From an uncultured bacterium (lineage in GTDB: Bacteria; Lindowbacteria; 2-12-FULL-62-27): a stretch of 64,000 nt of DNA. Position 1 is the first letter of the stretch, and the number at the start of each line of letters is the position of its first letter. Below the pieces are notes generated by a model that ran no database searches, had not been told where the DNA came from, and saw nothing but the letters and a program-made list of their open reading frames with translations. The position numbers and the translations under genes are program-made. Shown in pieces: positions 22,018 through 59,367 of the stretch. Where the stretch lies: assembly GCA_964534765.1 (NCBI GenBank), contig CAZHRJ010000001.1:762-64761 (forward strand), written 5' to 3'.

Positions 22018-22694
22018 GAGCCTGCATTCACCAGCCGAATTTTCTGCCGTATCTGGGGATTTTCAATAAAATCAAGCAGTCCGACATTTATGTCGTCTAT
22101 GACGTCGCCCAGTATGTCCGGGACCGGTTTGACAACCGAAACCAGATCAAAGGCCCGGCCGGACCGATCTGGCTGACCGTTCCGCTGCAGGTGAAAGACT
22201 CCTTTCTGAAGCGTTTTTTTGAGGTCAAACTTCCGGATGACCCGCACTGGAAAAAAAAGCACCTGCGAACCATTGAACACACTTATTCCCGGGCCGCGCA
22301 TTTCAAAACCTATTTTCCGCCGTTTGCGGGCATCTACGAGGGTCCGCACGCGACGCTGGCTGATATCAGCGTGGCCATCATAGAGTTTTTGCTGAAGGAA
22401 TTCCGGATCGGGACGCGGGTGGTGAGGACGACGGCGATGGATCTGGACAGTTCCCTGCAGTCCACAGAGATGATTGTTCAGATCCTGAAAAAACTGGGCG
22501 TGACCCGATACCTTGCCGGGGCGAGCGGAAAGAAATATATGGATATGGATCTGCTGGCGAAGGAAGGCATTCAGGTCGACTTTCAGCATTACGACCATCC
22601 GATCTACCGGCAGATGTATGGGGCCTTTGTGCCGAACCTGGCGGCCATTGATTTGTTGTTCAATGAAGGGGAAAATGCGGGGAATCTGATCTAG
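22014..22694 (+). CDS. WbqC-family protein
   Basis: C-terminal 226 codons of ORF 20511..22694. The ATG at 22014 overlaps the DegT stop (ATGA). MRACIHQPNFLPYLGIFNKI is the characteristic WbqC N-terminus. Confidence 0.7.
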   Translation: MRACIHQPNFLPYLGIFNKIKQSDIYVVYDVAQYVRDRFDNRNQIKGPAGPIWLTVPLQVKDSFLKRFFEVKLPDDPHWKKKHLRTIEHTYSRAAHFKTYFPPFAGIYEGPHATLADISVAIIEFLLKEFRIGTRVVRTTAMDLDSSLQSTEMIVQILKKLGVTRYLAGASGKKYMDMDLLAKEGIQVDFQHYDHPIYRQMYGAFVPNLAAIDLLFNEGENAGNLI

Positions 22695-22750
22695 ACCATG
22701 GAGGGTCAGTGCCGGCGATTGCCAGGGATGGCAAGGATTCGCCGGCCTAG
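22691..22750 (+). repeat. ~60-bp intergenic bulged-hairpin repeat, copy 1
   Basis: CTAGACCATGGAGGGTCAGTGCCGGCGATTGCCAGGGATGGCAAGGATTCGCCGGCCTAG is ~90% identical to 39734..39793. Stems GCCGGCGA/TCGCCGGC and TTGCCA/TGGCAA are conserved. Confidence 0.8.
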
Positions 22751-39733: not shown

Positions 39734-39793
39734 CTAGACCATGGAAGGTCTGTGCCGGCGATTGCCATGGATGGCAACGGTTCGCCGGCCTAA
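39734..39793 (+). repeat. ~60-bp intergenic bulged-hairpin repeat, copy 2
   Basis: CTAGACCATGGAAGGTCTGTGCCGGCGATTGCCATGGATGGCAACGGTTCGCCGGCCTAA. Flanked by the 12-bp direct repeat TTCGCCGGCCTA (39725..39736 and 39781..39792). Confidence 0.8.
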
Positions 39794-40571: not shown

Positions 40572-40712
40572 TTGTAATCCTCATCCCTTATCGGCCGCGC
40601 CCACTGCGCTTATAGCTACGGCGATCATCAGGTGTCAACCGGTTGGGATTTGCCGAGATTCTCCGGAGTGTCTTGACGGTGTTGTTCTTCCTATATTTAT
40701 GTGAGGGCCACC

Positions 40713-41483
40713 ATGAATCGTCAGGAGGTGCCGGCCGACATTGAGCTGAGCGTCATCATACCGGCCTATAACGAGGAGAAGAAGATCGAGCGGGACCTGT
40801 CGCAGGCCTGTCAGTATCTCGATCAGTGCCCCTTTTCCTATGAGATCATCGTGGTGGACGATGCCAGCGGCGACCGAACCGTCGAGGTCGGCCAGGCAGC
40901 GGCCCACCGGATGGCGCCGGACAAACCGATTCGTTTCATCCGGCAGCCTGAAAACCTCGGCAAGGGCGCGGCCGTCCGGGCCGGCATGCGGGAGGCGCGG
41001 GGCCGATACGCGCTTTTTGCCGACGCCGGCACGTGCGTTCCCTACAACAACCTCGACCGGGGCCTGGCGCTGCTCAAAGGCGGAGTGGATATGGCCTATG
41101 GGACGAGAGCGGTGACGCAGGCGAGGATTCTCAAAAAGCAACCGCTCTACCGGCGGATGGGATCGATCGTATTTCACTGGATCGTCACCCACCCCATCGG
41201 CCTGCCTGAAATATCCGACACGCAGTGCGGGTTCAAGATGTTTACTCAAAAGGCCTATCAGGACATTTTCCAGGCCATTTCAACGCGGGGGTTCATGTTC
41301 GACATCGAGACTTTTCTATACGCCCGCGAGCGCGGCTTCGCCATCCAGTCCTTTCCGGTCGACTGGTCCAACGATCCCGACACCCGGTTTAAACCCGTTT
41401 CGGGCAGCATCCGGAATTTCATGGAAATCATCGCCATCAAGTGGCGGATCCATCGGATGAAACGCGGCAGGCCCCCCGAATGA
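40713..41483 (+). CDS. GT2 glycosyltransferase, polyprenyl-phosphate sugar synthase-like (Dpm1/GtrB type)
   Basis: ATG at 40713 within ORF 40701..41483. LSVIIPAYNEEKKI, VVDDASGDRT, FADAG and TQCGFKMF are GT2 blocks. Confidence 0.8.
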   Translation: MNRQEVPADIELSVIIPAYNEEKKIERDLSQACQYLDQCPFSYEIIVVDDASGDRTVEVGQAAAHRMAPDKPIRFIRQPENLGKGAAVRAGMREARGRYALFADAGTCVPYNNLDRGLALLKGGVDMAYGTRAVTQARILKKQPLYRRMGSIVFHWIVTHPIGLPEISDTQCGFKMFTQKAYQDIFQAISTRGFMFDIETFLYARERGFAIQSFPVDWSNDPDTRFKPVSGSIRNFMEIIAIKWRIHRMKRGRPPE

Positions 41484-43123
41484 CCGCCCAACGGCGCGAC
41501 TGGGTCCGATGGGTGCTCATCTGTCTGGCGCTGGCGGTTTTGCTCACCGCCTATGCCCTGCGATATCCGAACACCGACCCGGACCAGCACATTTTCGGAT
41601 CGATGATCCTCAAGGACCTCCATCCGGAACTGTACCCTCTCGACTTTTTTCTGTCGGACCAAAAAAACTTCCAATTCTACATCCCGTGGTACCGTGCGCT
41701 TGCGGCCTGGGTGGTGGGCGACGCGCGTGGAGAGGACCTGCTGGTGAGATACAACCTCCTGTTGTTTCCAAGCTATTTTCTGTTTCTTCTGGGGATGTAT
41801 CTGCTCATCTGGCAGTTGACGGGAAAGGCGTCTGTCGGCTGGATCGTCGCCCTGAGCGCGGTCTTGACCCGCCAGTGCCTCTCGGTCAACCCGTTCGGAA
41901 TAGGCCTTGCCCAGTCGATGGTCGGGTTGAAACTGTTTTTCGCGGGCGTTCCCTGGATACTTTACATCCTGGTGCGGATGCGCCTGGGTCGATCGGGGCA
42001 GTATCTGGCCTGTTTTCTTCTGGGCCTGCTTTCAAATCTTCACCCGATTCTCGGCCTGGGGATCATGCTCTGTATGGGCGCTGCGGTCTGGGTCATTCGA
42101 CAATCCATCGGATGGAAATGGTCTGACGGTTTCGTTTCCGCGGCCGCCTTTGCCGCCGGATTTTCTCCGTTTGTCTTTCAGTATCTCCATGCCCGCCCGC
42201 CGGTCATGGGCGCTGGGCCAACGCTCACCGCGGATGAATTCTGGACGGCTTTTTCCCCCGCCTGGGGGTATCTTCCGGTTTCGCTCAAGGGTCTGCGGAA
42301 TTTTCTCCTGGACGCGCTGCCGCTTTTGTGTTTCAGCGCCCTGGCGATCCGAGGCCGCAGTCGCGGCCGGCCTGGACAACGGCCGGCGTCAGAGACGCCG
42401 GCATTTGAAAGATTTTTTTGGGTCTTTGCGGCCGCGGCCCTGATTGTCCCGATCGTGGTCAGCGCCGCTATTCAGACCCAAAGCCACCTGACCAACCGGC
42501 CGCCGGTGATCGGCCTTGAGCCAATGCGCTGGACGAGCTTCATTTATCTGCCGCTGTTTGTTTTCACGTCTTTTTTCCTGGCGGACGCCATCGACCGCCG
42601 CAGGTCCCGGCTGACGATTCTGGCGGCGGTGTTGTTGCTCTTTGCTCAAAAAGAGTTTCCCGGCCGACAAATCGTTCGCGAGGCGCTCCGGGAAAGCGGC
42701 CTGCATTCGGAGAAGCGATTGGAGGTGTGGACCCGGGAGACCCGGAGGAAGGCCGATCTTCAGGAACTGGCCGAATGGGTCCGCCGGCACACCCGGGCCG
42801 ACGATCTTTTTTTCCATCCCCACTACGATTTCCGTTTTTACGCCGAACGATCGATCGTCGTCGGCTGGAAGGACGGATCCATGCTCACCCGCGCGGGACC
42901 CGGTCGAGTCCGGGAGTGGCTCAGTCGCTCCGGCGCGGTCCGGGAAGCGCTGGACTCAAAAGATCCGCGCAAAATACTGGATACGGCGAGACAATACGGC
43001 TGTCACTATATTGTCCTCCGCAGCGGGCCCGGCAGGGGACTGGACCGATTCCAGGAAGCTCCACTTTATGAAAACCAGACATACCGGATATATCCCGTGA
43101 CGGACAATGCCGGAAAAAGTTAA
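41480..43123 (+). CDS. large polytopic membrane protein with soluble C-terminal domain (hypothetical; candidate GT-C-type transferase)
   Basis: ATG at 41480 overlaps the GT2 stop (ATGA). About 370 aa with multiple TM helices, then a ~170-aa hydrophilic domain. Contains palindrome copy A. Confidence 0.55.
   Translation: MTAQRRDWVRWVLICLALAVLLTAYALRYPNTDPDQHIFGSMILKDLHPELYPLDFFLSDQKNFQFYIPWYRALAAWVVGDARGEDLLVRYNLLLFPSYFLFLLGMYLLIWQLTGKASVGWIVALSAVLTRQCLSVNPFGIGLAQSMVGLKLFFAGVPWILYILVRMRLGRSGQYLACFLLGLLSNLHPILGLGIMLCMGAAVWVIRQSIGWKWSDGFVSAAAFAAGFSPFVFQYLHARPPVMGAGPTLTADEFWTAFSPAWGYLPVSLKGLRNFLLDALPLLCFSALAIRGRSRGRPGQRPASETPAFERFFWVFAAAALIVPIVVSAAIQTQSHLTNRPPVIGLEPMRWTSFIYLPLFVFTSFFLADAIDRRRSRLTILAAVLLLFAQKEFPGRQIVREALRESGLHSEKRLEVWTRETRRKADLQELAEWVRRHTRADDLFFHPHYDFRFYAERSIVVGWKDGSMLTRAGPGRVREWLSRSGAVREALDSKDPRKILDTARQYGCHYIVLRSGPGRGLDRFQEAPLYENQTYRIYPVTDNAGKS
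42380..42407 (+). repeat. intragenic hairpin palindrome, copy A
   Basis: CGGCCGGCGTCAGAGACGCCGGCATTTG matches copy C at 26 of 28 positions. Stem CCGGCGTC/GACGCCGG. Translated in-frame as RPASETPAF. Confidence 0.85.
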
Positions 43124-43967
43124 AATCCCGTCGAGACACTGGTCGGCGGACCATGAGGACATGCTCGAGGAGTCCAGCCACAACCATTATCTCGACGTGG
43201 CGTCCCGCAAGAACGCGATCCGGTCTTTGTCGGACCGTCTGAGCCGGCCCAATGCCGCGTATCTGGAAGCCGGCTGTTCGACGGGCTGGCTTCTGGACGA
43301 TGTGCGGCGGACATTTCCCGGAATCCGATCGATCGGCGCGGACGCGATCCTGGCCGGTCTGCGGAAGATCCGCGGCCGAGGCAGCACCGCCGGTGTCCCA
43401 AGTGCCGGCGTCTCCGACGCCGGCCGAAGCCGCGATGCGTGTCTTGCGCAGTTTGATTTGTGCCGGGCGCCGTTTGCTGATCAACGTTTTGACGCCATCA
43501 GCTGCGTCAACGTGCTGGAACATATCGAGGAAGACATCCAGGCGATGCGGGAAATCCGCCGGATGTTGAAACCGGATGGGCGGGCGTTTCTCATGGTTCC
43601 CGCGTGTCCCGGTCTGTACGACTATTTCGACGAGGTCCACCAGCACGTGAGACGGTATGACCGGACCGAATTTCGAGATAAACTCCGGTTGGCCGGGTTC
43701 GACATCGTGCGGGAAAATTACATGGGAACCGTATTGTTCCCCCCGTTTTTTGTCGTAAAAAAAATCGGCCAGTGGAAGATGAAGGGGAAGAGCCTTGAGG
43801 AGAAACGGCATCACGTCATGAAAAATCTCAGTGGCGGCGGGGCCGGCGGCGGCCCGATCGGGTATCTGGGCGCTCTGGCGATGGCCGTGGATTGGCAACT
43901 GGGAAGGTGCTTCAGCCTTCCGTTCGGGATACGGCTGTTCGCGCTCGTGGAAAGGAGCGGCTCGTGA
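43107..43967 (+). CDS. class I SAM-dependent methyltransferase
   Basis: 286 aa. YLEAGCSTGWLL (motif I), DAISCVNVLEHI, LKPDGRAFLMVP. Contains palindrome copy B inside a non-conserved loop. Confidence 0.75.
   Translation: MPEKVKIPSRHWSADHEDMLEESSHNHYLDVASRKNAIRSLSDRLSRPNAAYLEAGCSTGWLLDDVRRTFPGIRSIGADAILAGLRKIRGRGSTAGVPSAGVSDAGRSRDACLAQFDLCRAPFADQRFDAISCVNVLEHIEEDIQAMREIRRMLKPDGRAFLMVPACPGLYDYFDEVHQHVRRYDRTEFRDKLRLAGFDIVRENYMGTVLFPPFFVVKKIGQWKMKGKSLEEKRHHVMKNLSGGGAGGGPIGYLGALAMAVDWQLGRCFSLPFGIRLFALVERSGS
43398..43426 (-). repeat. intragenic hairpin palindrome, copy B (inverted orientation)
   Basis: The reverse complement of CCAAGTGCCGGCGTCTCCGACGCCGGCCG is identical to copy C over 29 bp. Translated in-frame as PSAGVSDAGR. 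Confidence 0.9.
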
Positions 43968-44923
43968 ACATTATGGTGACCGGCGTGGCCGGGTTTATCG
44001 GATCCAACCTTGCCCAGACGTTGATCCAGGCGGGCCATGTGGTCGTCGGTATTGACAACCTGTCCGCGGGAACACGGGAAAATGTTCCGGCCGGGGTCGA
44101 TCTGCGTCAGGCCGACATCCGGTCCAAAGAGATTTATCCGCTTTTTCAAGGCCGGGACGCCGTCTTTCATCTGGCGGCGAAGAATTGTCTGCTGGATTGT
44201 CTTCACAATCCGGTCGAAACCGCCGACATCAACGTCGGCGGCACGGCCAACGTCCTCGAAGCGGCGCGGCTGGCCGGGGTGCGGAAGTTCGTCTATGCCG
44301 ATTCCTCGGCCGAATACGAGGGAGTCCCGGACCTGCCGTCGAGGATCGAGCGGATCGACCCGCAGGGCGCGTACGCGGTGAGCAAACGCGGTGGCGCGCT
44401 CTTTTGCGAGACGTATCACCGGTATTTCGGATTGAATGTGACCATCCTCCGGTACTTCAACGTCTACGGGCCGGCCCAGGATTTTCGCCGGGTGATCCCG
44501 CCGGTCATGAGCGCGTTTATTTTGAAGATGCTAAAAGGCGATGCGCCCGTGATCTACGGCACAGGCGAAAAGCGGCGGGATTTTATTTACGTGGACGACG
44601 TGAACCGATTCCACCTGCTGGTCCTCAAAGACGCCCGGACCAGCGGCCGGACGTACAACGTGGGATCAGGATCGAATTATTCCGTGAACGACATTTTCCG
44701 GCTCATCGAGGATATTCTTCAGACCGGCCTAAAACCCATCCACCAGGCGCCTCTGCCCAACGACGCCGACGCCACCCTCGCCGACCTCGCTGACTCGCTC
44801 ACGCTTGGCTGGAAACCGGAAATCGCCATCCGGGAGGGATTACGCCTGACCGTGGACTATTTGAAAAGCAAAATTGAAACGGAGGCCCGCCTCGGGGCAG
44901 CCGGGCTTGGCCGGACGACATGA
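43964..44923 (+). CDS. NAD-dependent epimerase/dehydratase (extended SDR)
   Basis: GTG at 43964 (GTGA overlap with the upstream stop) or ATG at 43973. VTGVAGFIGSNL and YAVSK catalytic motifs. Confidence 0.8.
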   Translation: MNIMVTGVAGFIGSNLAQTLIQAGHVVVGIDNLSAGTRENVPAGVDLRQADIRSKEIYPLFQGRDAVFHLAAKNCLLDCLHNPVETADINVGGTANVLEAARLAGVRKFVYADSSAEYEGVPDLPSRIERIDPQGAYAVSKRGGALFCETYHRYFGLNVTILRYFNVYGPAQDFRRVIPPVMSAFILKMLKGDAPVIYGTGEKRRDFIYVDDVNRFHLLVLKDARTSGRTYNVGSGSNYSVNDIFRLIEDILQTGLKPIHQAPLPNDADATLADLADSLTLGWKPEIAIREGLRLTVDYLKSKIETEARLGAAGLGRTT

Positions 44924-45948
44924 TCATTACCCGGACCCCATTTCGCATCCCGCTGGGCGGCGGCGGGACGGACCTTCCGTCGTTTTACCGGCGGGAGGGC
45001 GGGTTTGTATTCAGCGCGGGAATCGATAAATACATGTTCATCTGCGTCAACCAGCCGATCGTCGACGATCTCATCCGTCTGAAATATTCCAAAACCGAAA
45101 TGGTCGGTTCGGTCGGCCAGGTTCAGCACGATCTGGCCCGGGAGGCGCTTCGACGGGTCGGATTCCGAAATTCCGTCGAGATCGTCTCCATGGCCGACGT
45201 CCCGGCGGGCACGGGGCTTGGATCATCCAGCTGTTATCTGGTCGGCCTCCTGAACGCCCTTCATACCCTCCGGCGGGATTTCGTGTCCCTGAAGGATCTG
45301 GCCGAGGAGGCCTGTGCGATTGAGATTCGGACTTTGAAAAAACCCATCGGCAAACAGGACCAGTACCTCGCGGCATTCGGAGGGCTGACGGTTCTGGACA
45401 TTTCCAAAACGGGAAAAGTGACGGTCACGCCGGCCAAGGTCAGCCGTGAAACCGTGGATGACCTCGAAAAACACATGCTGCTCTTCTTCACCGGCACCAT
45501 GCGAAACGCGCTCGATATCCTGTCCGAACAGAGCCGGGCGACAGAGAAGCGGGAGAATAAGGTTGTTTCAAGTCTTCAGCGGATCAAGGAAATTGGATTC
45601 CGGATCCGGGAGGCGATCGAATCCGGGGACCTCACGCGGTTTGGACTTCTCATGGACGAGCACTGGCGATACAAGAAAAAACTCTCGACAAAAATTTCCG
45701 ACAGGCGATTTGACGAGTTGTACGATCTGGCGAAAAAAAGCGGGGCGCTTGGCGGAAAAATCACGGGCGCCGGCGGCGGCGGGTTTTTCGTGTTTTATTG
45801 CGACGGCAAACCCGACCGGCTTCGAAAGGCCATGAGGGATCGGGGACTGCGGGAAATGCGATACCGCTTTGATTTCGAGGGGACCAAGGTTATTTCAAAT
45901 TTTCTCAATTACCGCGTCACCGACGCGCCGGAGGACGCGCCGCGGTAA
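44920..45948 (+). CDS. hddA: GHMP-family sugar kinase, D-glycero-alpha-D-manno-heptose 7-phosphate kinase-like
   Basis: 342 aa. RTPFRIPLGGGGTDLPSFY N-terminus, GHMP motif PAGTGLGSSS, C-terminal GAGGGGF. Context with gmhA, gmhB and hddC. Confidence 0.7.
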   Translation: MIITRTPFRIPLGGGGTDLPSFYRREGGFVFSAGIDKYMFICVNQPIVDDLIRLKYSKTEMVGSVGQVQHDLAREALRRVGFRNSVEIVSMADVPAGTGLGSSSCYLVGLLNALHTLRRDFVSLKDLAEEACAIEIRTLKKPIGKQDQYLAAFGGLTVLDISKTGKVTVTPAKVSRETVDDLEKHMLLFFTGTMRNALDILSEQSRATEKRENKVVSSLQRIKEIGFRIREAIESGDLTRFGLLMDEHWRYKKKLSTKISDRRFDELYDLAKKSGALGGKITGAGGGGFFVFYCDGKPDRLRKAMRDRGLREMRYRFDFEGTKVISNFLNYRVTDAPEDAPR

Positions 45949-46658
45949 TGAAAGCCATGGTTCTCGCCGCGGGCAGGGGCACGCGGCTCAAACCCCATAC
46001 CGACACCATCCCCAAACCCATGATGCCCGTCGCCGGCCGGCCGCTGCTTGAGCATATTTTTGAGCAAATCCGTGCGGCGGGGATCGCGGACATTGTCGTC
46101 AATCTTCACCACCGGCCCGAAGTCATCCAGAATTATTTCAGGGACGGCGGCCGGCACAACATCCGGCTGACCTATTCATTCGAGCCGGACCTGCTCGGCA
46201 CTGCGGGAGCGGTTTTGAAGCTAGCGGCGGAGTTTACGGAGACTTTTCTGGTGTATTACGGCGACAATTACGTCGAATTGGATTTGCCGGACCTGATCCG
46301 ATCGCATCGACAGTCGAAATCGGATGCGACGATCGCGGTATTTTCCTGCGAGGAGCCGCATCGATCCGGGATCGTTCAGGCGGATGACAGCGGCCGGATT
46401 TTCAATTTTGTCGAAAAACCCGACCCCGAGATCGATGTCGGCCGGCTGGCCAACGCCGGCGTCTACGTGCTGGAACCGAAAGTCATCCCGGTCATTCCCG
46501 CCGGGCGGGCGGTTGATTTTGGCCGGGACATTTTTCCGGAACTGATCCGGAATCACTTCTTCCTCCAAGCCTATCCCCTTCGGGCAGCGGTCTACGGCAT
46601 CGACACGCCGGAGCTTCACGCCAGACTCGTCCGGCATCTTGCTGAGCGAACCAATTGA
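45948..46658 (+). CDS. hddC: sugar-1-phosphate nucleotidyltransferase, heptose 1-phosphate guanylyltransferase-like
   Basis: 236 aa. LAAGRGTRLKPHTDTIPKPMMPVAGRP signature and NAGVYVLEP. Confidence 0.7.
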   Translation: MKAMVLAAGRGTRLKPHTDTIPKPMMPVAGRPLLEHIFEQIRAAGIADIVVNLHHRPEVIQNYFRDGGRHNIRLTYSFEPDLLGTAGAVLKLAAEFTETFLVYYGDNYVELDLPDLIRSHRQSKSDATIAVFSCEEPHRSGIVQADDSGRIFNFVEKPDPEIDVGRLANAGVYVLEPKVIPVIPAGRAVDFGRDIFPELIRNHFFLQAYPLRAAVYGIDTPELHARLVRHLAERTN

Positions 46659-46692
46659 AATACCGGCGGGGGATGGCTATTCTTCAAGGGAC

Positions 46693-47292
46693 ATGAAAAA
46701 CAGGGAGTATATCGAATCCTATTTGGCGGGGATCAAACAGATTTCCGAAGAGATCAGCCGGGAGGACATTGACCGGGTGATCGAGTCGCTGTACGAGGCG
46801 TGGGCCGGTGGCCGACGAATCTTTATTTTCGGAAACGGCGGGTCGGCCGGGACCGCGTCGCATTTCGCGGCCGACCTCAACAAGTGCACGTCGATCGAGG
46901 GGAAGAGACGGATCAAGGTCATGAGCCTGGTGGACAGCGTTCCGTGGGTGAGCGCTCTCACCAACGACGACGGCTGGGACAATGTCTATGTGGAACAGAT
47001 GAAAAATTTTTTCGAGACCGGAGACGTGGCGCTGGCCCTGAGCGTCCATGGGGGTTCGGGCAAGGACAAGGCGGGGTTGTGGTCCCAGAACCTCCTGAAG
47101 GCCCTGCAGTACGCGCAAAGCAGGGGCGGCAAGGCGCTGGGATTTTCCGGATTCGACGGCGGCGCGATGAAAGAGATGGCGGACGTCTGCGTTGTGGTTC
47201 CCTACAACACAACACCCCATGTGGAGTCGTTCCACGTCGTCCTGCACCATCTGGTGACGTTTCGCCTGGCCGAGCGCATTCGATGTACTTAG
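46693..47292 (+). CDS. gmhA: sedoheptulose 7-phosphate isomerase (SIS domain)
   Basis: ATG at 46693 (AAGGGA 4 nt upstream) within ORF 46639..47292. FGNGGSAGTASHFAADL and the HVVLHHL-type C-terminus. Confidence 0.8.
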   Translation: MKNREYIESYLAGIKQISEEISREDIDRVIESLYEAWAGGRRIFIFGNGGSAGTASHFAADLNKCTSIEGKRRIKVMSLVDSVPWVSALTNDDGWDNVYVEQMKNFFETGDVALALSVHGGSGKDKAGLWSQNLLKALQYAQSRGGKALGFSGFDGGAMKEMADVCVVVPYNTTPHVESFHVVLHHLVTFRLAERIRCT

Positions 47293-47351
47293 AGCCTGTA
47301 ACAAAATGACAAATAGGTTCCCGCCCCGCCGGCCATTTTGATACAGGCTCT
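47291..47351 (+). promoter_or_regulatory. 18-bp-stem hairpin spanning the gmhA stop and the gmhB start, enclosing an 11-codon mini-ORF
   Basis: AGAGCCTGTAACAAAATG (47291..47308) pairs with CATTTTGATACAGGCTCT (47334..47351) at 17 of 18 positions, with a 25-nt loop. The TTG start of gmhB (47338) is in the 3' arm. Mini-ORF: ATG at 47306 to TGA at 47339-47341. Confidence 0.6.
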
Positions 47352-47910
47352 TAGCCGCCGCGCCGTTTTTCTTGATCGGGACGGAGTCATCAATAAGGTC
47401 GAACTGGGCCCGGACGGCAGACCCATGACGCTGACGACGCCGGAGGAATTTGAATTCATGCCCGGCGTTGAAGAGGCCCTCCGGCATCTCCACGACACGG
47501 GGCTATTGATCTTTGTGGTCACCAATCAGCCCGATGTGGCACGCGGCAAACTCGATCCTCTCCAGCTTCGACGAATCCATGACCGCCTCGCCGGCGGGTT
47601 TCCGTTTGACGGCATCTATACCTGTTTGCACGACGATCCGGACAACTGCGACTGCCGGAAGCCCAAACCGGGGCTCATCCTGCGCGCGGCGCGCGAATTC
47701 GATATCGATCCCGCGCGAGGATTCATGGTCGGAGACCACCAGCGGGACGTCGGCGCCGGCCGAAACGCCGGATGCGCGACGATTTTGATCCGGCGGCCCT
47801 ACAGCGGCGACTCGGCCGGCGGCGCGCAGCCCGATTACATCGTGCGGGACCTTCCGGATGCGGCGGAGACGATCATCCGATTGTGCCGGCCGGAACCGAA
47901 GGGATCGTAG
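47338..47910 (+). CDS. gmhB: D,D-heptose 1,7-bisphosphate phosphatase (HAD-IIIA)
   Basis: 190 aa. HAD motif I AVFLDRDGVIN, VVTNQ, Zn-finger-like CxHxxxxxCxCRKP and MVGD. Confidence 0.8.
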   Translation: MIQALSRRAVFLDRDGVINKVELGPDGRPMTLTTPEEFEFMPGVEEALRHLHDTGLLIFVVTNQPDVARGKLDPLQLRRIHDRLAGGFPFDGIYTCLHDDPDNCDCRKPKPGLILRAAREFDIDPARGFMVGDHQRDVGAGRNAGCATILIRRPYSGDSAGGAQPDYIVRDLPDAAETIIRLCRPEPKGS

Positions 47911-47913
47911 GCC

Positions 47914-48591
47914 GTGGTTGATTTGAACCGCTACAAATTCTTCATCGGAAAACAACTCTTCGCGCGCCAGTTTCGGCGGGTTGTGCCGCGCCTCCGATGC
48001 CCCATCCTCGATGTCGGATCGGGATCAGGCCCGTTTCGGCGGCATATGCCGGCCGGGCGGATCCTCTCCATGGACATCGACATGAGACTGCGGCCGGCAA
48101 TTGTGGCGAACGCCCGGCAAATGCCGTTTGAAACGGGCGCCTTTCAGAGCGTCATCTGCACCGAGGTCCTCGAACACGTTCCCCAGCCGGATCAGTGTCT
48201 TCAGGAAATCCGGCGGGTGTTGGCGCCGGGTGGAATTCTGTATCTGACGGTTCCCATGCTGTGGCCGCTGCATTACGAGCCGCACGATTACTACCGGTAT
48301 ACCCGGCACGGCATTCGATACCTTCTCGAAACCGCCGGATTTGAGCTGATGGAGACGAACCCGATCGGCGGACTTTTTTCGTTTCTGTGCATGCGCGTGG
48401 GGGAAAAGGGATTCAATCTTGTTCACAAACTCGCCTTTTTCCTTCCCAAACCATGCCGGCATTTCTGGAGCGTCCCGCTGACGCTCCCGATTTTTTTTGC
48501 GCTGTATCTTCTGTCATTCCTGTTTGACCCGCTCATGAAAAAGGATGTTTTTGCCTGGGCGGTTCTGGCAAGAAGCGGCCGGACAGGGTAA
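47914..48591 (+). CDS. class I SAM-dependent methyltransferase with C-terminal hydrophobic segments
   Basis: 225 aa, GTG start. ILDVGSGSGPF, FQSVICTEVLEHV, LAPGGILYLTVP. Confidence 0.7.
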   Translation: MVDLNRYKFFIGKQLFARQFRRVVPRLRCPILDVGSGSGPFRRHMPAGRILSMDIDMRLRPAIVANARQMPFETGAFQSVICTEVLEHVPQPDQCLQEIRRVLAPGGILYLTVPMLWPLHYEPHDYYRYTRHGIRYLLETAGFELMETNPIGGLFSFLCMRVGEKGFNLVHKLAFFLPKPCRHFWSVPLTLPIFFALYLLSFLFDPLMKKDVFAWAVLARSGRTG

Positions 48592-48594
48592 TCC

Positions 48595-49707
48595 ATGCGA
48601 ATTTGCTTTTACACCTTTTCCTTTTTCCCGACGATCGGCGGATCGGAGATCATCCTCCACGGTCTTGCGGACAGTCTGACCCGGCGGGGGCATACGGTCG
48701 TGGTGTGGGCGCCGTTTGTCCGGGGAAAAAACAATCACATCGACACGGTCTACCGGTTGAGACGATACAGCCGCCCGATATCCAAACGCATCGGCGTCCG
48801 GCAGACCGTTCCGTGGCTCCTCTTGGAATTCGCCCGCACCCGGTATAACGTCCTCCATTGCCACGGCGCCTATCCGGCCGCCTATGTCGGCGCGGCGGTC
48901 AAATGGATGATCAAGGTGCCGATGGTTGTCCGGCCGCACGGATCGGACATTCTTCAAGGGGAATGGATCCGTCAAAATCCCAGATTGGAACGGCGGATGA
49001 CTCAGTCGCTCCAAAAGGCCGACCGGATTGTGGCTCAGGGACAGTCTTTGAAATCGGAGCTGCTCAGACTCGGCCTTCCGGACACCCGCGTCGAAATCAT
49101 TCACAACGGCGTCCAAAGATCCCCAGTCCGGCCGGTGGCGCCCGCGGCATCGACGCGCGAGCCGCCCTACGTATTGTCCCTGGGAAGCCTGAGCCAGAAG
49201 AAGGGATATGATCTGCTGCTCAGGGCATTTTATGACATCGCGACGGACATCCCGGACATCCGGCTGGTCATCGCGGGCGGCGGGTCGCGATATTTGGAAC
49301 TGATGGATTTGACCATCAAACTCTCCCTTGAAAATCGTGTCCGGTGGATGGGCGAAGTCAGCGGCGAGAGAAAACAGCAGCTTCTGGAGGGCGCGCTGGC
49401 CTACGTGTGCCCGTCCAGACGGGAACCGTTTTCGAACGCGCTACTCGAGGCGATGGCGGCCGGCCTGCCGATTGTGGCCACCCGTGTGGGCGGCAATGCC
49501 GAGATGCTGGAGGACGATCGGTCCGCCATCCTGGTGCCGCCGGAAGATCCCCTCCTGCTGGCCGGCGCCATCCGGCGGGTCATCCAGGACAAGCCGCTGC
49601 GGGACAGGCTGGGTGAAGAATCCTACCGTCGGTCGGAACTGTTTGACTGGGATCGGATGGTGACGCAGTATGAAGATCTGTATCGACGGGTGAGCGGGAA
49701 AAATTGA
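48595..49707 (+). CDS. GT4-family glycosyltransferase
   Basis: 370 aa. N-terminal FPTIGGSEI and the C-terminal EX7E-type block PSRREPFSNALLEAMAAGLPIVATRVGG. Confidence 0.8.
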   Translation: MRICFYTFSFFPTIGGSEIILHGLADSLTRRGHTVVVWAPFVRGKNNHIDTVYRLRRYSRPISKRIGVRQTVPWLLLEFARTRYNVLHCHGAYPAAYVGAAVKWMIKVPMVVRPHGSDILQGEWIRQNPRLERRMTQSLQKADRIVAQGQSLKSELLRLGLPDTRVEIIHNGVQRSPVRPVAPAASTREPPYVLSLGSLSQKKGYDLLLRAFYDIATDIPDIRLVIAGGGSRYLELMDLTIKLSLENRVRWMGEVSGERKQQLLEGALAYVCPSRREPFSNALLEAMAAGLPIVATRVGGNAEMLEDDRSAILVPPEDPLLLAGAIRRVIQDKPLRDRLGEESYRRSELFDWDRMVTQYEDLYRRVSGKN

Positions 49708-50897
49708 AAGACCTGATTGGCCTGTTTCTCAAAAGACCTTTCACGGCATTTCTGGTCTGGCTGTTTCGATTCTATTCCCATTTTCGGCCCCGGCCCGCGC
49801 CGGATTCTTTGGCGTCGGACCTCCGGTCGAGCGCGTCATCCATTCTCATCTTCAGCACCGCGGGCATCGGCGACACTCTGTCCGACACGCCCGCGATCCG
49901 GGCGGTCAAGGAAAGTTTTCCAATGGCCCGGGTGACGGTGGTGGTTCATGAGAAACGCAAAGACCTTCTGGCGGCGAATCCCTGGATCGACCGGTTGATT
50001 CCCCACCGGAAAAATCCATTCCGCTTTTTTAAAACGCTCCGCGCGGTCCAGTCCGACCGGCCGGCGTCGGAGACGCCGGCACTTGGAGCGCCGGAGGCGC
50101 TGATCCGGCCGAGAGTGGCAATCGTTCTGAGAGCCAACGATCCGGACATCTGGCCGCTGGCCTATCTTTCGGGAGCGCCTGCGGTTGTCAGCCGGCGGGA
50201 GAGCACGGTGTTTCCTTTTCTGGTAAACGTCCCGGTCGATGTCCCCGACTGGCCGAACCTTCCGGGCGTGCTTCAAACGCTGGCCGTGGTTAAAGCCATC
50301 GGAGCGCAGGCGAGCGACTGCCGGATCGTCTACAGGGTCACGGAGGATGACCGGCGGGAGTTTCAAAAAACATGGTCCGGGCCGACTGACCATCTGGTGG
50401 CCGTGCAGATTCATCACAGCCCGCGCCTGGCATTCCGGGATTGGCCGGCATCTTCGTTCGTTGCCCTTTGCGAAAAAATACTGGCCGCCTGGCCACGCCT
50501 TTCCATCTGTCTGACCGGCGGACCGGCCGACATCAACAAAGCCCGGCGGATCACCGAGGCGGTTTCTTTGCGCGACGATTGCCCGCGGCTGATCAACGTC
50601 GCCGGAAAACTCACGCTTCGCCAGACCGCGGTGTTGCTGGAGCGGTCCACCGTTTTCATCACAACCGACACCGGGCTCATGCATCTGGGATTCGCTCTCC
50701 AGATTCCCACACTGGCCATGCTTCATCCCTATAACGCCGGCCGGGTCGGCCCATACGGATACGGCGCGATGCACACCGCCTGCGTCATGGCCGGCCCACC
50801 GGCCGACGGCGCGGGAAATTTGAGGCCCCTCTCGGAGTTGTCCTGCGAAACGGTGTTTGAAGCGTTTAAGGATCTGTATGTGCGGCATATTCGGTAA
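49704..50897 (+). CDS. GT9-family glycosyltransferase (heptosyltransferase-like)
   Basis: 397 aa, TTG start overlapping the upstream stop. ILIFSTAGIGDTLSDTPAIRAVKESFP and TTDTGLMHLGFALQIPTLAM are GT9 blocks. Contains palindrome copy C in an inserted loop. Confidence 0.75.
   Translation: MKDLIGLFLKRPFTAFLVWLFRFYSHFRPRPAPDSLASDLRSSASSILIFSTAGIGDTLSDTPAIRAVKESFPMARVTVVVHEKRKDLLAANPWIDRLIPHRKNPFRFFKTLRAVQSDRPASETPALGAPEALIRPRVAIVLRANDPDIWPLAYLSGAPAVVSRRESTVFPFLVNVPVDVPDWPNLPGVLQTLAVVKAIGAQASDCRIVYRVTEDDRREFQKTWSGPTDHLVAVQIHHSPRLAFRDWPASSFVALCEKILAAWPRLSICLTGGPADINKARRITEAVSLRDDCPRLINVAGKLTLRQTAVLLERSTVFITTDTGLMHLGFALQIPTLAMLHPYNAGRVGPYGYGAMHTACVMAGPPADGAGNLRPLSELSCETVFEAFKDLYVRHIR
50058..50086 (+). 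repeat. intragenic hairpin palindrome, copy C
   Basis: CGGCCGGCGTCGGAGACGCCGGCACTTGG with a perfect 8-bp stem CCGGCGTC/GACGCCGG and a 3-nt loop, followed by a second palindrome AGCGCC-GGA-GGCGCT (50087..50101). Translated in-frame as RPASETPALG. Confidence 0.9.
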
Positions 50898-52755
50898 ATT
50901 GTCTTTTGGCGGCGCGTCGCCGCTGGGCCGGGACATCCTCCGGCGGATGGCGGACTGCCTCAAACCCCGTGGACCGGATGATGAAGGATTTTATTCCGAC
51001 GGCCCGATCGAGCTGGGGATGCGGCGGCTGAGCGTTATTGATGTGGCCGGCGGCCGGCAGCCGATGTCGGACGAAACGGGGCGCGTCACGATCGTTTACA
51101 ACGGGGAAATCTATAATTTTCTCGACCTGCGCGCGGATCTGGAAAAACGGGGCGGCCGGTTCAGGACTCGAAGCGACACGGAGGTCATGCTGGCGCTCTA
51201 CCTGAAAAAGGGAATTGCCTTTCTGGATGACCTTCGCGGAATGTTCGCGTTCGCCCTCTGGGACAGGGAATCCCAAACGCTGATCCTCGCGCGGGACAGG
51301 CTTGGCAAAAAGCCCCTCTACTATGCGCCCAGTGCCGGGGGAATCACGTTCGCGTCCGAAATCAAGGCCGTCCGGATGGCTCCGGATGTTTCCCGCGATC
51401 TTCACCCGGCGTCGATCGACCGCTACTTCTCGATGAACTTTATTCCCCATCCCGACACGGTATTTGCGGCAATCAAGAAACTCCCGCCGGCTCATTATCT
51501 CGTCGCGCGCGCGGACGGGATCAAGCAAATCACCCGATACTGGCAGCTCGCGTTTGAGCCGAAACGGTCCATCGGGATCGAGGACGCGAAATCCGAACTG
51601 CTCCGGCATCTGCGCGAGTCCACCCGCATCCGGATGATCAGCGACGTTCCCCTGGGACTGCTCCTCAGCGGAGGACTCGATTCCAGCGCCATCGCGGCTC
51701 TTGCGGCTGAGGGAGGCCGACGGATCAAAACATTCTCCGTCGGATTCGAAAACGGTTCGGGCACCGGCGGCGCCGCCGAAATCGCGAAGCAGTTTCAGAC
51801 CGATCACCAGTCGCTGATTCTGAAACCCCAGGTGGCGGAGATTCTCCCGCGCCTGGCGGAAACGTTTGACGAGCCGTTTGCCGATTCATCGGCTGTGCCC
51901 ACCTATTTGATTGCGACGGAAGCGCGAAAGTCTGTGACCGTGGCACTGAACGGCGACGGCGGGGATGAGGCGTTTGCCGGATACCCGCGATACGCATCGG
52001 TTGCCGCGGCCGCGCAGGCCCTCGCCCGAGCGCCGGAATGGGTTCAGGAGTCCATCCGCGGACGACTCGCGGAACCCGCGATTGACCTGACGGCCGGCTC
52101 TGCCGAATTCCTCCTGCGCAAACTCCGAAAATGGCTGGCGCCCGAGCAGCGCGTGCTTTTTCAGCCCGAATCCTTCACGCCCGGCGAACGCCGGCGGCTC
52201 TATCGGCCTGATTTCAAGGCGCGCCTCCGCCGGCAGGACTGGGAACTCTTGATGCGGGATCTCCGGGACCCGATCGCGCGGACAGTGGACGCCGCCGAAC
52301 GGGTAATGGCCGCCGACATCGGGCTGTATCTGCCGGGCGACTTGCTGGTCAAAATGGACATGGCCACCATGGCCAACTCTCTGGAAGCCCGGTCACCCCT
52401 GCTGGACCACCGGCTTTTGGAATTCGCCGCTGCTCTGCCGATGCGATACAAAATCCGCGGCGGGATTCAAAAATGGATTTTCCGGGAAACCATGAGACCG
52501 TTTTTGCCCGAATCGGTTCTGTCCCTGGAAAAAAAGGGGTTCGCGCTGCCTCTCAGATCGTGGCTCCGCGCAGACCTGCGGCCGATGATCCGGGATACAC
52601 TGGAAACCAATCCGCGCGGCCTGACGCGGTTTCTGGCCAGGGATGAATTACGTACCGTTGTTCAAAAAATCCTCAGCCGGCCCAGCGGCGGAGAAAAGAA
52701 ACTCTGGGCGCTGCTCATGTTTGAACTCTGGTACCGGGGCGTTTTTCCCGAATGA
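50878..52755 (+). CDS. asparagine synthase (glutamine-hydrolysing)-family amidotransferase (second paralog)
   Basis: ATG at 50878 gives the MCGIFG Ntn nucleophile start. PP-loop SGGLDSS. Confidence 0.85.
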
Positions 52756-54070
52756 AGGCGTGAAAGGCGTCGATCACATAGTCGAGCATTTCCGGGGTCA
52801 GACCCGGATACACACCGATCCAGAACGTCCGATTCATGACGATATCCGTGTTCTCAAGCGTCCCCGCCACGCGGTGCGGGACTGAGAAATAGGCCGGCTG
52901 ACGAAGAAGATTTCCGCCGAACAAAAGCCGGGTTGAAATCTTGCGCTCATCCAAAAACCGGATGATGGCTGGCCGATCAAACGGGGCGGCCGGACGGATC
53001 GTCATTAAAAAACCAAACCAGCTCGGGTCGCTCCCGTCCGTCGCGCGCGGCAGGATGAAAAATTCCTCCAGATCCTTCAGCCCCTCATACAGCGTCTGCC
53101 AGTTTCGGCGTCTGGCGTCGATAAACGAAGGCAATTTTTTAAGCTGCGCCACCCCAACCGCCGCCTGGAGATCCGTTGCTTTCAAGTTGTAGCCAATATG
53201 CGAATAGATGTACTTGTGATCGTACCCGGCAGGCAGGTCGCCCAGTTTCCAGTCGTATCGTTTTCCGCAGGTGTTCTCCTTGCCCGGATCGCACCAGCAA
53301 TCCCGGCCCCAGTCCCGGAACGATTCCACCAGGACTTTGAGTTGCGGGTCCCGTGTGGCCACGGCGCCGCCTTCGCCCATGGTCATGTGATGGGCCGGAT
53401 AAAAACTGAACGTCGACAGATGACCGACCGATCCGGCGCGTTTTTCGCGATAGATCGATCCCAGGGCGTCGCAGGTGTCTTCGATGAGCCACAGATCGTG
53501 TTTCCGGGCCAGATCCGACACGGCGTCGAGATCAAACGGGTTTCCGAGCGTATGCGCCATCATGATCGCCTTCGTTTTAGGCCCGATCGACTCCGCCACG
53601 CGCGCCGCGGACGCGTTATACGTTGCGAGCTCGATGTCGACAAACACGGGAACCAGCCGGTTTTGAAGGATGGGGTTGAGCGTCGTCGGAAACCCGGACG
53701 CCACCGTCACCACCTCGTCCCCATCCCGGAGTCGCCGGTCGCCCAGTTTGGGAGAGGTGAGAGCCGATAGGGCCAGGAGATTCGCGGACGATCCGGAATT
53801 GCAGAGCATCGCGTGCCGCACTCCCAGAAATCGGCCAAACTCCCGCTCAAATTGGTCCGCGAATCGGCCCGTCGTCAGCCAGAAATCGAGCGCGGACTCC
53901 GTCAGAGTCTGAACTTCATCCGCGTCGAACACCCGGCCCGCGTAATAGACGGGGCTTTCGCCCGGAACAAACGGGGGAGCCTTCAGAGCCAATTCCCAGT
54001 ACTCGGCGACCTTGGCCAGAATTTCCCTCTTCAGCCGGGCCGCATCGGCGACCGGCGGACTGCGATCCAT
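52715..54070 (-). CDS. rfbH: RfbH/DdhC-like PLP/PMP-dependent sugar dehydrase (DegT superfamily)
   Basis: ATG at 54070 within ORF 52715..54148. [47 protein letters not shown] resemble CDP-6-deoxy-D-xylo-4-hexulose-3-dehydrase-type proteins. The family call is firmer than the exact activity. Confidence 0.7.
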
Positions 54071-57113: not shown

Positions 57114-58447
57114 CCGCCGTCCGTCGTGGGAGGTGGAGCGCCCAGGACAATTTGTCTCAGTCCCGCATAACGGCATTTAGTACGGTCAAGCGTGTCAAAC
57201 GGATCGATAACGGTCCCACCGGCCATCCACGCGCGAATTTCGGACGGAGGAATTTCCGAGAATTCCTTCCAGGGCGTCATGATCGCCAGCACGTCAACGC
57301 CATCACAGGCCGCCCGCGGGCTGCGAGTCTGGATAACATCCGGCGCTTCCGCGGCGCTGACCCGCGCCTGGGGATCATAGGCCTTGATCGGCCGGTCACA
57401 CTGACCGGCCGGGAGTTGGGAAAGTGCGCGTATGAGTTCGATTGAAGGCGAGTTTTTAATCGAAGCCGTGTCTGTCTTGTAGGCGATTCCCCAGATGCCG
57501 ATCTTCGCGGGCGCCCGCCGAGTCGCGCCGGCGGACAGAACATGCCGCTCGATCATCGCCATCGGCCAGTTTTTCCGATGCCGGCTGTTGGCCAGAAACG
57601 ATTCGGCGGCACGCCCGTCAGCGCCATGCGTTACGGCCAGATCGCAGACCGCCGTGATATCCCGCTCGATGTTCCCGCCGCCGATGCCCAGACCCGGGAC
57701 CAGATACGCGTAGGGACCAATCCGTCGGTCGGTCTTCAGCGCCGGGATGATTTCCGACCAGTCCGCTCCGGTCGACTCGCAAATCTCCGCCAGGGTGTTG
57801 GCCACGGTCAGAGACGAGGCCAGACAGAGATTGATTGATATTTTGGCAAGTTCCGCGCTTTCATACTTCATCCGGAAAATCGGGCAGCCGTACGCGCCTA
57901 AAACCGCGGCGTACGATTCAGGCAAAGGCTCTCCGGGATTCTCACAACCGATGATGAACCGCTCGGGATGAATGGCCCGGTCGACCGCGTTGCCGAAAAT
58001 CAGCGTTTCAACCTGGTAATAGAGCCGGATTCCAGGAGCAGGGCACATCCTCCCGATCGAAGAAACCAGGGAACGCATCATGCCGGGCTGAATCTGGCTC
58101 ATGACGATAAACACCGTGTTCGGCCTAATCTCGCCGACCGCGCGCGCGAATACCTCATGAAATCGGGTGAGGTCGCATCGGTTCTGATCGTCCGTGGCAA
58201 GGTCGAGTGACAGATACACGACGGGGCAGGATGATAGCGCCGACGCGTCGGACGTGAATCGAATGGACCCTGAATGCGCGCGCCACAGATCGGCCAGGCC
58301 CTTTTCGTAAATTGGAAACTTCCCCTGCGACAGATCCCGGCATAGCGAATCACTCGGGTCAAACGCCACAACCGGGCCCAGACCCCTCGATGCCGCGGCG
58401 AGACTGGACACGATCCCCAGATGCGACAGTCCGGCGAATCCGATCAT
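57107..58447 (-). CDS. nucleotide-sugar dehydrogenase (UDP-glucose/GDP-mannose dehydrogenase family)
   Basis: ATG at 58447 (ATGA overlap with the upstream stop) within ORF 57107..58666. N-terminal Rossmann MIGFAGLSHLGIV, central GLGIGGGNIERD-type catalytic region, C-terminal GIAYKTDTASIKNSP. Confidence 0.7.
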   Translation of the reverse strand: MIGFAGLSHLGIVSSLAAASRGLGPVVAFDPSDSLCRDLSQGKFPIYEKGLADLWRAHSGSIRFTSDASALSSCPVVYLSLDLATDDQNRCDLTRFHEVFARAVGEIRPNTVFIVMSQIQPGMMRSLVSSIGRMCPAPGIRLYYQVETLIFGNAVDRAIHPERFIIGCENPGEPLPESYAAVLGAYGCPIFRMKYESAELAKISINLCLASSLTVANTLAEICESTGADWSEIIPALKTDRRIGPYAYLVPGLGIGGGNIERDITAVCDLAVTHGADGRAAESFLANSRHRKNWPMAMIERHVLSAGATRRAPAKIGIWGIAYKTDTASIKNSPSIELIRALSQLPAGQCDRPIKAYDPQARVSAAEAPDVIQTRSPRAACDGVDVLAIMTPWKEFSEIPPSEIRAWMAGGTVIDPFDTLDRTKCRYAGLRQIVLGAPPPTTDGGQ

Positions 58448-59367
58448 GTCGAAATACCGTTGAGGATTGAATGGATCCACACGTCGTTGTCCAGGTTCGT
58501 GCCGGCCGGAGGCGCTGATCCTGCGCCGGCGCAGAGGCTCTGAAAATGCCGGTATTCCATCCCCCATGTCGGGTCCGGCCCATCCACGCGCTCGATCTCT
58601 TCTTCCGGGCGGCCGCTGGGAAATATGCGTTTGCGAATCCTTAGCGTGTTTGGCCCCCATTTGCAAAGTCCGCCCACATGGAGACTGCCCAGCTCGCCGA
58701 TAACGTCGATGCGGAACGTGTTTTTCCAGGAAACCAGCGACATCTCCAGTTCAATCACCGGCAGGCCGTCGCGGCTGATCAGGATGGCGTGGTCATAGGC
58801 GTTGTTTTCAAACCGGTTCAGACACGAAACCGAATAGTCCCGCTTCTTTTGCCCGAACAAAAAATCCGTGAGATCCAGAAGATGGGATCCCAGATCGGAA
58901 ACGACGCCAAGACCCTTGTCGCGCCATGGCGAATTCCTGAAATCCCGCGCGGTGCCGTTTCCATAATGGAGTTTCGCCAGATACACAGACCCGATCACTC
59001 GCTGGTCCAAAAGCGATTTTAATCGCGCGATGTTGGGTTCGAATCGGTGGTTGTACGCCGTATAACACGCCACGTTCCGGGACCGCGCCAGGGACTGCAC
59101 CGCCGATATCTCGCTCGCGTCGGCCGGCAGGAGCGGTTTTTCCACCAGAACATGCTTCTCGCTCGACAGCAGGTACTCCACAATTGGAATCTTCGCGGAT
59201 TCGGGCGTGCACACCATCGCGGCGTCGTAGTCCCCAATCGGTACGTCCTCAACGCGCCGGTATCGGGCATCCGGAACGACGGGATCCACCGTGGCGACGA
59301 CATCACTGCCGGCCACGGCGATTCGTTTACGGCCCTGAATCCCGAGGCCGACGACGATCATTCTCAC
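58444..59367 (-). CDS. Gfo/Idh/MocA-family oxidoreductase
   Basis: 307 aa. MRMIVVGLGIQGRKR Rossmann start and EKPL motif (VLVEKPLL). Confidence 0.8.
   Translation of the reverse strand: MRMIVVGLGIQGRKRIAVAGSDVVATVDPVVPDARYRRVEDVPIGDYDAAMVCTPESAKIPIVEYLLSSEKHVLVEKPLLPADASEISAVQSLARSRNVACYTAYNHRFEPNIARLKSLLDQRVIGSVYLAKLHYGNGTARDFRNSPWRDKGLGVVSDLGSHLLDLTDFLFGQKKRDYSVSCLNRFENNAYDHAILISRDGLPVIELEMSLVSWKNTFRIDVIGELGSLHVGGLCKWGPNTLRIRKRIFPSGRPEEEIERVDGPDPTWGMEYRHFQSLCAGAGSAPPAGTNLDNDVWIHSILNGIST

Follow-up and report, generated by a model that had tools for sequence, protein, structure and literature searches.

A 48-nucleotide double-hairpin unit, very probably a mobile element, inserted in frame in genes of Lindowbacteria-like bacteria

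The 64-kb stretch of DNA analyzed here (the window; positions 762 to 64,761 of contig CAZHRJ010000001.1, assembly GCA_964534765.1, from an uncultured bacterium of the GTDB lineage Lindowbacteria) carries a perfect hairpin palindrome inside a heptosyltransferase-like gene of family GT9. This palindrome belongs to a unit of 48 nucleotides (nt), or 16 codons, that forms a double hairpin and recurs in unrelated genes of several genomes, and it is very probable that this unit is a mobile element that inserts in frame. The unit inserts as a fixed 48-nt block without target-site duplication, and it can insert into the loops of existing copies. We regard it as probable, with rather less assurance, that the palindrome is one copy of a lineage-specific, non-autonomous, hairpin-dependent mobile element of 48 nt that moved as single-stranded DNA (ssDNA).

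The unit was defined from an ungapped alignment of 61 copies and the conservation of each column, and reads GCCGGCGTC-GGA-GACGCCGGC ACTTGGG GCGCC-GGA-GGCGC TGAYCCG. Two hairpins with the same GGA loop stand in direct orientation, separated by the conserved spacer ACTTGGG and followed by the tail TGAYCCG, and the conserved block extends from -3 to +46 relative to the start of CCGGCGTC. In the same alignment the left flank is (C)CG, with its three positions conserved at 66, 85, and 97%, while the right flank is GCCG at 70 to 75% and then GCG at 56%.

The window holds three clear copies and one weak remnant. Exact matches to the 29-mer CGGCCGGCGTCGGAGACGCCGGCACTTGG lie at 50058-50086 (+) and 43398-43426 (-), and the sequence at 42380-42408 (+) matches it with 3 mismatches (26 of 28 positions identical over the first 28 nt); 100 dinucleotide-preserving shuffles yielded no match, giving a chance expectation of 0. 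A second palindrome, AGCGCC-GGA-GGCGCT at 50087-50101, directly follows the 29-mer in the GT9 gene. The preliminary description of this DNA was accurate in its statements about the 29-mer, the second palindrome, and the three host genes, but it had proposed a founding copy of a three-member family with a core of 28 to 29 nt and perhaps an open-ended extension. These last proposals give way to a defined 48-nt double hairpin present at at least 103 distinct sites over several genomes.

Copy C is the complete unit GCCGGCGTCGGAGACGCCGGCACTTGGAGCGCCGGAGGCGCTGATCCG at 50060..50107 (+), within the GT9 gene (49704..50897, +; 397 residues; Pfam PF01075, E = 1e-17; 111 homologs). Its hairpin 1 (50060-50080) has a 9-bp stem and hairpin 2 (50087-50101) a 6-bp stem, each with a GGA loop, and the unit is read in frame F1 as the peptide (D)RPASETPALGAPEAL(I) (nhmmer E = 1e-15). 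Copy B (43377..43424, -; nhmmer E = 3e-12) is a complete unit in the opposite orientation inside a class I S-adenosylmethionine-dependent methyltransferase gene (43107..43967, +; 286 residues; Pfam Methyltransf_23/11/25), where it is read antisense in frame R0 and gives the peptide ..STAGVPSAGVSDAGRS..; its hairpin 1 is exact and its hairpin 2 has diverged to CACC/GGTG, including a compensatory A-T pair. A repeat search found copies B and C to be alike over 54 nt at 85% identity. Copy A (42382..42407, +) comprises hairpin 1 and CATTTG only (26 to 28 nt), without hairpin 2, and encodes RPASETPAF in a variable basic loop of a polytopic membrane protein with a C-terminal DUF6798 domain (41441..43123, +; 560 residues; Pfam PF20604). 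It is the sole orphan hairpin 1 that we saw, matches model positions 1 to 26 only (nhmmer E = 3e-7), and reads as a truncated or decayed remnant. The three copies thus occupy three different Pfam-supported open reading frames (ORFs).

Directly 3' of the copy A hairpin the sequence turns A/T-rich and includes seven consecutive T (TTTGAAAGATTTTTTTGGGTCTTT, 42404-42428), so that hairpin 1 and this stretch resemble an intrinsic terminator, though inside the membrane-protein ORF; translated, the stretch gives FERFFWVF, where a predicted transmembrane segment begins. A possible fourth copy, CGGCCGGAGGCGCTGATCC at 58503..58529 (+), has 17 consecutive bases in common with hairpin 2 and the tail and encodes GAGSAPPAG near the C terminus of the ORF at 58444-59367 (-). 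Its nhmmer match is weak (E = 0.17), it resembles the shorter, hairpin-2-only derivatives described below, and it is probably, if tentatively, a decayed short derivative and the fourth trace of the family in the window.

Comparison with homologs shows insertion of a defined block. In the GT9 protein, the 16 residues DRPASETPALGAPEAL are missing from all 19 aligned homologs (39 to 58% identical), and these homologs read x-R-P-D at the junction, indicating that the target already resembled CGGCCG. The methyltransferase presents an equally clean 16-residue gap against 12 of 12 homologs, and in a glutamyl-tRNA synthetase (GluRS) of locus L039 the unit peptide corresponds to a 15-residue gap, located in the catalytic domain, relative to PDB 8i9i. 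At the DNA level, BLAST searches with joined flanks gave five empty-site candidates, one of which is a clean gap of exactly 48 nt: a UvrD-like gene is filled in L057 (Ga0137796, site 466) and empty in L091, which belongs to the Candidatus Lindowbacteria genome named below. The other four candidates were dropped as lying in regions too diverged to read. An insertion in the GT9 protein had been proposed before, at ~20 residues, and stands at a corrected size of 16; the 16-residue gaps and the empty site in a related genome bear out both the insertion and the tolerance of in-frame insertion, while copy A is not demonstrably an insertion. In an AlphaFold model of the GT9 protein, the insert falls in a coil (residues 117 to 137) predicted between a helix (105 to 116) and a strand (138 to 141), and this coil is the lowest-confidence block of the model (pLDDT 60, against a mean of 90.4), which agrees with the earlier suggestion that the peptide occupies a loop.

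Copies that have entered other copies delimit the unit independently of protein alignments. Three nested copies were found, one in the hairpin 2 loop in L031 and two in the hairpin 1 loop in L090 and L141, and deleting the nested 48 nt gives back the canonical host copy with nothing duplicated. In L057, L090, L120, L124, and L133, two or three units follow one another in tandem at a period of exactly 48 nt, and all of these arrays lie in ORFs that score well as coding. One 6.7-kb metagenome contig, Ga0114945_10006011 (L120), holds three separate arrays of 3, 2, and at least 2 copies (3340-3500, 5255-5367, and 6525-6639). Within the ORFs of these relatives the arrays constitute 16-residue repeat tracts.

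The family is large and restricted in its distribution. Across 185,579 GTDB species, each represented by one genome, 55 loci match CCGGCGTCNGAGACGCCGGCAYTTG, and all of them lie in two genomes, Candidatus Lindowbacteria bacterium RIFCSPLOWO2_12_FULL_62_27 (43 of 55) and 'bacterium NC_groundwater_1274_Ag_S-0.2um_61_68' (12 of 55). A metagenome scan with the hairpin 1 core added 91 further loci, part of them from the same Lindowbacteria genome and the remainder from Ga0114945, Ga0137796, Ga0156027, Ga0209343, OBEQ01, and others. Nine of the metagenome loci (L056, L058, L073, L076, L079, L109, L131, L143, and L145) match hairpin 1 but nothing else of the unit, and we excluded them as chance palindromes. 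De-duplication left 103 distinct sites and 56 distinct 48-mers; in two species-level genomes, many copies do not differ at any of the 48 nt. The window overlaps none of the fetched loci, and its genome is therefore a third carrier, in which copies were counted within the 64 kb. Our literature search found no paper on repeats in Lindowbacteria.

Sites were classified with a codon-usage model trained on the loci, which separates real genes from shadow ORFs. More than half are internal to an ORF (59 of 103, ~57%), 19 lie at an ORF 3' end and 14 at a 5' end (together 33 of 103, ~32%), and 11 have a weak or no coding signal. The length of the unit is a multiple of three and five of its six frames are open; four of them are in use at internal sites, namely, R0 (..SASGAPSAGVSDAG.., 27 sites), F0 (AGVGDAGTWGAGGADP, 15 sites), F1 (as in copy C, 9 sites), and R1 (GSAPPAPQVPASPTPA, 8 sites), and all four yield linker-like peptides rich in Pro, Ala, Gly, and Ser. 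The TGA-containing frame and the arginine-rich frame (DQRLRRPKCRRLRRRP) have no internal sites at all. The view that near-identity at the DNA level, rather than the protein level, is what unites the copies is upheld by this reading of the same DNA in four frames and on both strands in different hosts.

Pfam-confirmed hosts include NAD-glutamate dehydrogenase, a CHASE histidine kinase, GH116, GluRS, squalene/phytoene synthase, a Ser/Thr kinase, several TPR proteins, and LepA (at the N terminus), and Pfam matches place the unit in a linker of FtsK and of a sigma-54 activator. In a CO-dehydrogenase flavoprotein, the FAD domain is split into two matched stretches. The unit persists inside genes, including the essential ones for GluRS, FtsK, and LepA. 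At gene ends it contributes coding sequence. At L005 6765(+) the unit forms the last ~18 residues of a gene whose stop codon follows 4 codons later, directly upstream of the ribosome-binding site of a response-regulator gene, and at L018 5099(+) it forms the N-terminal extension of LepA, directly before IRNFCIIAHVDHGKST.

The stems themselves are maintained. Folded as DNA, copy C forms two hairpins whichever strand is used (-19.5 kcal/mol; z = -4.7), folding z-scores across the tested copies range from -3 to -5.9, and paired cells amount to 97.6% over 55 distinct full-length sequences. In hairpin 2 the outer and loop-proximal pairs are invariant, and both sides of the central pairs 31-39 and 32-38 are changed in 16 to 17 of the 55 sequences, producing the stem variants GCCGC/GCGGC, GCCTC/GAGGC, GCGGC/GCCGC, GCGTC/GACGC, and CACC/GGTG; two pairs of hairpin 1 covary as well (GTCGGAGTC/GACTCCGAC). 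None of 500 shuffles reached the observed score. Subfamilies thus differ by compensatory stem changes, which indicates that hairpin pairing matters for propagation. We also found derivatives of 24 nt (8 codons) that retain hairpin 2 only, CGGCCGGCG-CCGGAGGCGCTGAYCCG-GCCG, and keep the reading frame (L013 4680(-), L021 195(+), and L025 7127(-)); they look as if the unit had lost the sequence between its two GGCG repeats.

The unit also shows a target preference. Reconstruction of 79 single sites gives the empty-site consensus CCG|GCCGGCG, with left positions conserved at 72, 82, and 95% and right positions falling from 76 to 49%. Across these sites, flank and unit end are identical over 1 to 13 nt, whereas a control placed 15 nt further out gives mostly 0, and because the length of this junction repeat varies it reflects a target preference and not a duplication; target-site duplication was rejected on this ground and because removal of nested copies restores the host exactly. 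CCG|GCCGGCG is at the same time the junction between two head-to-tail units, a coincidence that would account for the 48-nt arrays and for the frequent GCCGGCG at the right flank.

We hypothesize that the unit would be moved in trans, as ssDNA, by an enzyme that recognizes its hairpins. Movement of a folded single strand fits the observations because insertion is of a fixed block without duplication, the left flank is conserved, pairing is kept, loops serve as targets, and arrays run head to tail. IS608 and ISDra2 move as folded single strands, a mode also proposed for REPs with their RAYT transposases (PMC6006769); elements of the IS608 type carry subterminal hairpins, travel as ssDNA circles, and insert into the lagging-strand template without any duplication (PMC6006769, PMC3733652). 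The best candidate for the moving enzyme would be an HUH-Y1 transposase of the IS200/IS605 or RAYT type, cutting 3' of the (C)CG at the left flank and 3' of the terminal CCG, although the assignment to an HUH-class enzyme acting on ssDNA is one that we put forward only tentatively. Selection would afterwards purge copies in the TGA frame and the arginine-rich frame. By our reasoning, a double-stranded circle of 48 bp is physically implausible.

Several results weigh against this account. A crude motif scan of the window and 146 loci (~1.1 Mb), using the regular expression HxH(hydrophobic)...Y-x-x-x-N/Q on all six-frame ORFs, revealed no HUH-Y1 or other transposase; the only match was a cupin, which we discarded as a false positive. 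The REP guide tetranucleotide GTAG/GTGG is missing from the unit, and a mechanism of the IS608 type accounts for the conserved left flank while leaving the GCCGGCG preference at the right unexplained. The compensatory changes given above were counted per sequence and not per event, and we estimate by eye that they represent ~5 to 6 independent events. Copy A is not demonstrable as an insertion in the homolog alignment, since its host loop is variable and only three residues longer than in the closest homolog, with no 16-residue gap. Strand bias is a hint only: the top strand of the element coincides with the G-rich strand of its locus at 64 of 90 sites (p = 2e-5, against a gene baseline of 51%), but the bias is significant for sense-oriented sites only and weakens when each locus contributes one site (19 of 23 in F and 19 of 35 in R orientation), and strand was assigned by local GC skew, an unvalidated proxy for replication direction in this phylum.

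The main rival to the ssDNA enzyme model dispenses with a transposase altogether. The hairpins would stall replication, and the nascent strand would switch template through CCGGCCG microhomology at both unit ends, copy the 48 nt, and switch back; the same slippage would yield the tandem arrays and the 24-nt deletion derivatives. Such template switching would agree with the microhomology that junctions often share with the unit ends (6 nt, CGGCCG, in the GT9 gene, and a median of ~6 nt over the 79 sites), the missing target duplication, the exact period of the arrays, the internal deletions between GGCG repeats, and the negative outcome of the motif scan for transposases in the window and fetched loci. 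We nevertheless consider it unlikely, given that 16 of the 79 sites have a junction identity of only 1 to 2 nt, that the left flank of the UvrD-like site is CTC, and that precise ends at ~100 unlinked sites would be unusual for ectopic template switching, while insertion into loops and paired stem changes better fit recognition of a folded substrate. A further reading would make the unit the smallest coding-adapted mobile element yet described, a stop-free ssDNA module of 16 codons that is directed to its own hairpin loops and to sequence mimicking its circle junction (CCG|GCCGGCG), is moved by something that is neither a canonical RAYT nor an IS200 TnpA (for example, a new class of HUH enzyme or recombinase, or a host replication or repair activity), and keeps supplying the proteins of a candidate phylum with new flexible linkers and repeat tracts; this is a speculative proposal, and we rate it as quite unlikely.

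Copies might instead be kept because they are useful to the host, either as a binding site for a DNA- or RNA-binding protein, a processing site, or a polar chromosome signal, or through selection on the flexible peptide itself. The very high conservation, with so many copies identical over their whole length, the upkeep of stems by compensatory change, and the orientation bias to the G-rich strand would all be expected of a recruited sequence, but recent spread also predicts high identity, and since the same DNA is read in four frames, both along and against the direction of transcription, selection cannot be acting on any one peptide or mRNA structure. The copies also sit at unrelated positions of unrelated genes, their sites are missing from orthologs, and nested and tandem copies resemble proliferation rather than placement, making host recruitment improbable. 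A local gene-conversion patch confined to three sites of one gene cluster, or alternatively a conserved protein motif, can be given almost no weight. The clear copies of the window do all fall within 7.7 kb of one cluster, but there are ~100 further sites in unrelated genes of other genomes, four frames are in use, and the homologs lack the peptide altogether instead of encoding it with divergent DNA. Both ideas are refuted by the further sites and the homolog gaps, and we retain movement as folded ssDNA as the preferred reading.

All three clear copies lie on a + strand gene cluster of glycan or lipopolysaccharide type (window ~40700-52800) whose ORFs appear to encode GT2-like, DUF6798 membrane, methyltransferase, epimerase/dehydratase-like, GT4-like, GT9, and asparagine-synthase-like proteins, Pfam having been applied to three of these ORFs and the other names read from translations; several of the ORFs have overlapping start and stop codons. 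Rfam at its gathering score gave nothing at the element in the 64-kb window, and a tRNA-Thr (anticodon TGT) at 920-992 is the only Rfam or ARAGORN match in the 64 kb. A second, unrelated repeat of 59 nt, CTAGACCATGGAGGGTCAGTGCCGGCGATTGCCAGGGATGGCAAGGATTCGCCGGCCTA, occurs at 22691-22749 and 39734-39792 with 92% identity; its fold as RNA (~-30 kcal/mol) consists of a small hairpin and, after it, a long nested one. Both of its copies look intergenic, the first being bordered by a stop codon on one side and by the GGAGG and GTG start of the following gene on the other, and no copy was present in the 146 fetched loci.

In-frame "selfish DNA" inside genes is known mainly from the palindromic elements of Rickettsia (RPEs) and from scattered intragenic REPs. 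The phenomenon thus has precedents, of which the present case, from a free-living and uncultured lineage, is a clean, very compact, and sharply delimited example. Its anatomy can be seen with unusual clarity, from the exact 48-nt length and the preferred target to the insertions nested in other copies or arrayed in tandem and the paired changes in the stems, and its mechanism can be read from the DNA with unusual ease. About nine-tenths of the sites fall within ORFs or at their ends, those of essential genes (GluRS, FtsK, LepA) among them. To our knowledge, the enzyme that moves RPEs and CGTC repeats is still unknown, and two short hairpins offer a tractable substrate for finding an enzyme that moves such elements. 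The family is also a natural experiment on which protein positions tolerate a flexible insertion of 16 residues, and for annotation the unit explains odd low-complexity segments and N- and C-terminal extensions in these genomes.

RPEs, reportedly described by Ogata et al. in 2000, are the closest functional parallel, and the earlier comparison with them was a fair one. Both RPEs (RPE-1 to RPE-10) and the unit are dispersed palindromic repeats found in frame in unrelated functional genes (PMC10969869), in both the added peptide is tolerated in loops, and neither has a known transposase; for the unit, this likeness is carried by the in-frame peptide gaps in GT9, the methyltransferase, and GluRS and by the low-confidence coil that holds the GT9 insert. 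The unit differs in its length (48 nt versus ~100 to 150 bp) and in its host, an uncultured Lindowbacteria-like groundwater bacterium and not Rickettsia, and, unlike RPEs, it builds tandem arrays of exact period, inserts into its own loops, and is read in four frames. This separation is drawn from their described features.

REPs and REPINs (PMC3733652, PMC6006769, PMC3116915) resemble the unit in being short GC-rich hairpins with many copies and distinct subfamilies per genome, and both are thought to be handled as folded single strands. Intragenic, frame-preserving REPs, GTAG- or CGTC-tagged, are documented in Opitutus terrae and R. conorii (PMC3733652), and frame-preserving REPs also occur inside tnpA-REP genes (PMC6006769). 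REPs are nevertheless mostly extragenic, in contrast to the unit with its predominance of sites inside ORFs or at their ends (59 and 33 of 103), and they carry GTAG or GTGG 0 to 2 nt 5' of the hairpin foot, where the 61-copy consensus of the unit has (C)CG before hairpin 1, ACTTGGG before hairpin 2, and no GT[AG]G. A REPIN is an inverted pair of REPs, whereas the unit is a head-to-tail doublet of two different hairpins whose arrays also run head to tail, and head-to-tail dimers are rare in REP families. No RAYT (HUH-Y1) gene flanked by the unit was detected by the crude motif scan of the window and loci. CGTC-tagged REPs, which include RPE-4 and RPE-6, have an unpaired terminal CGTC, a stem of 8 to 9 bp starting with A/T pairs, a loop of 4 to 5 nt, and a CCA tail (PMC3733652). 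The unit departs from them in having CGTC only inside the hairpin 1 stem, by the loop, with stems that start with G-C, loops of 3 nt, and the tail TGAYCCG.

With IS200/IS605 elements and their miniature derivatives (PATEs), the unit has in common subterminal hairpins at both ends (hairpin 1 at the left end, hairpin 2 at 7 nt from the right end), no notable terminal inverted repeats, no target duplication, a short conserved left-flank sequence, and a hint of strand bias. It differs from them in that the left cut would fall at the very foot of hairpin 1, and its right-flank preference is not a feature of IS608; the scan found no TnpA near copies of the unit in the window and loci, and the PATE derivatives that have been described are far longer than 48 nt. 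A classical MITE would bring terminal inverted repeats and a duplication of fixed length; the unit lacks the duplication, and the only inverted sequence at its ends is CGGCCGG/CCGGCCG, which belongs partly to the flanks. PARCELs share with the unit intragenic tandem repeats, dyad symmetry of the DNA, and apparent movement within and between genomes, but they are 25-residue amphipathic domains in proteins of unknown function that spread with whole ORFs, whereas the unit comprises 16 codons, inserts singly in ordinary enzymes, and encodes non-amphipathic, linker-like peptides. The unit functions like RPEs and intragenic REPs, yet by their defining features it stands outside those families.

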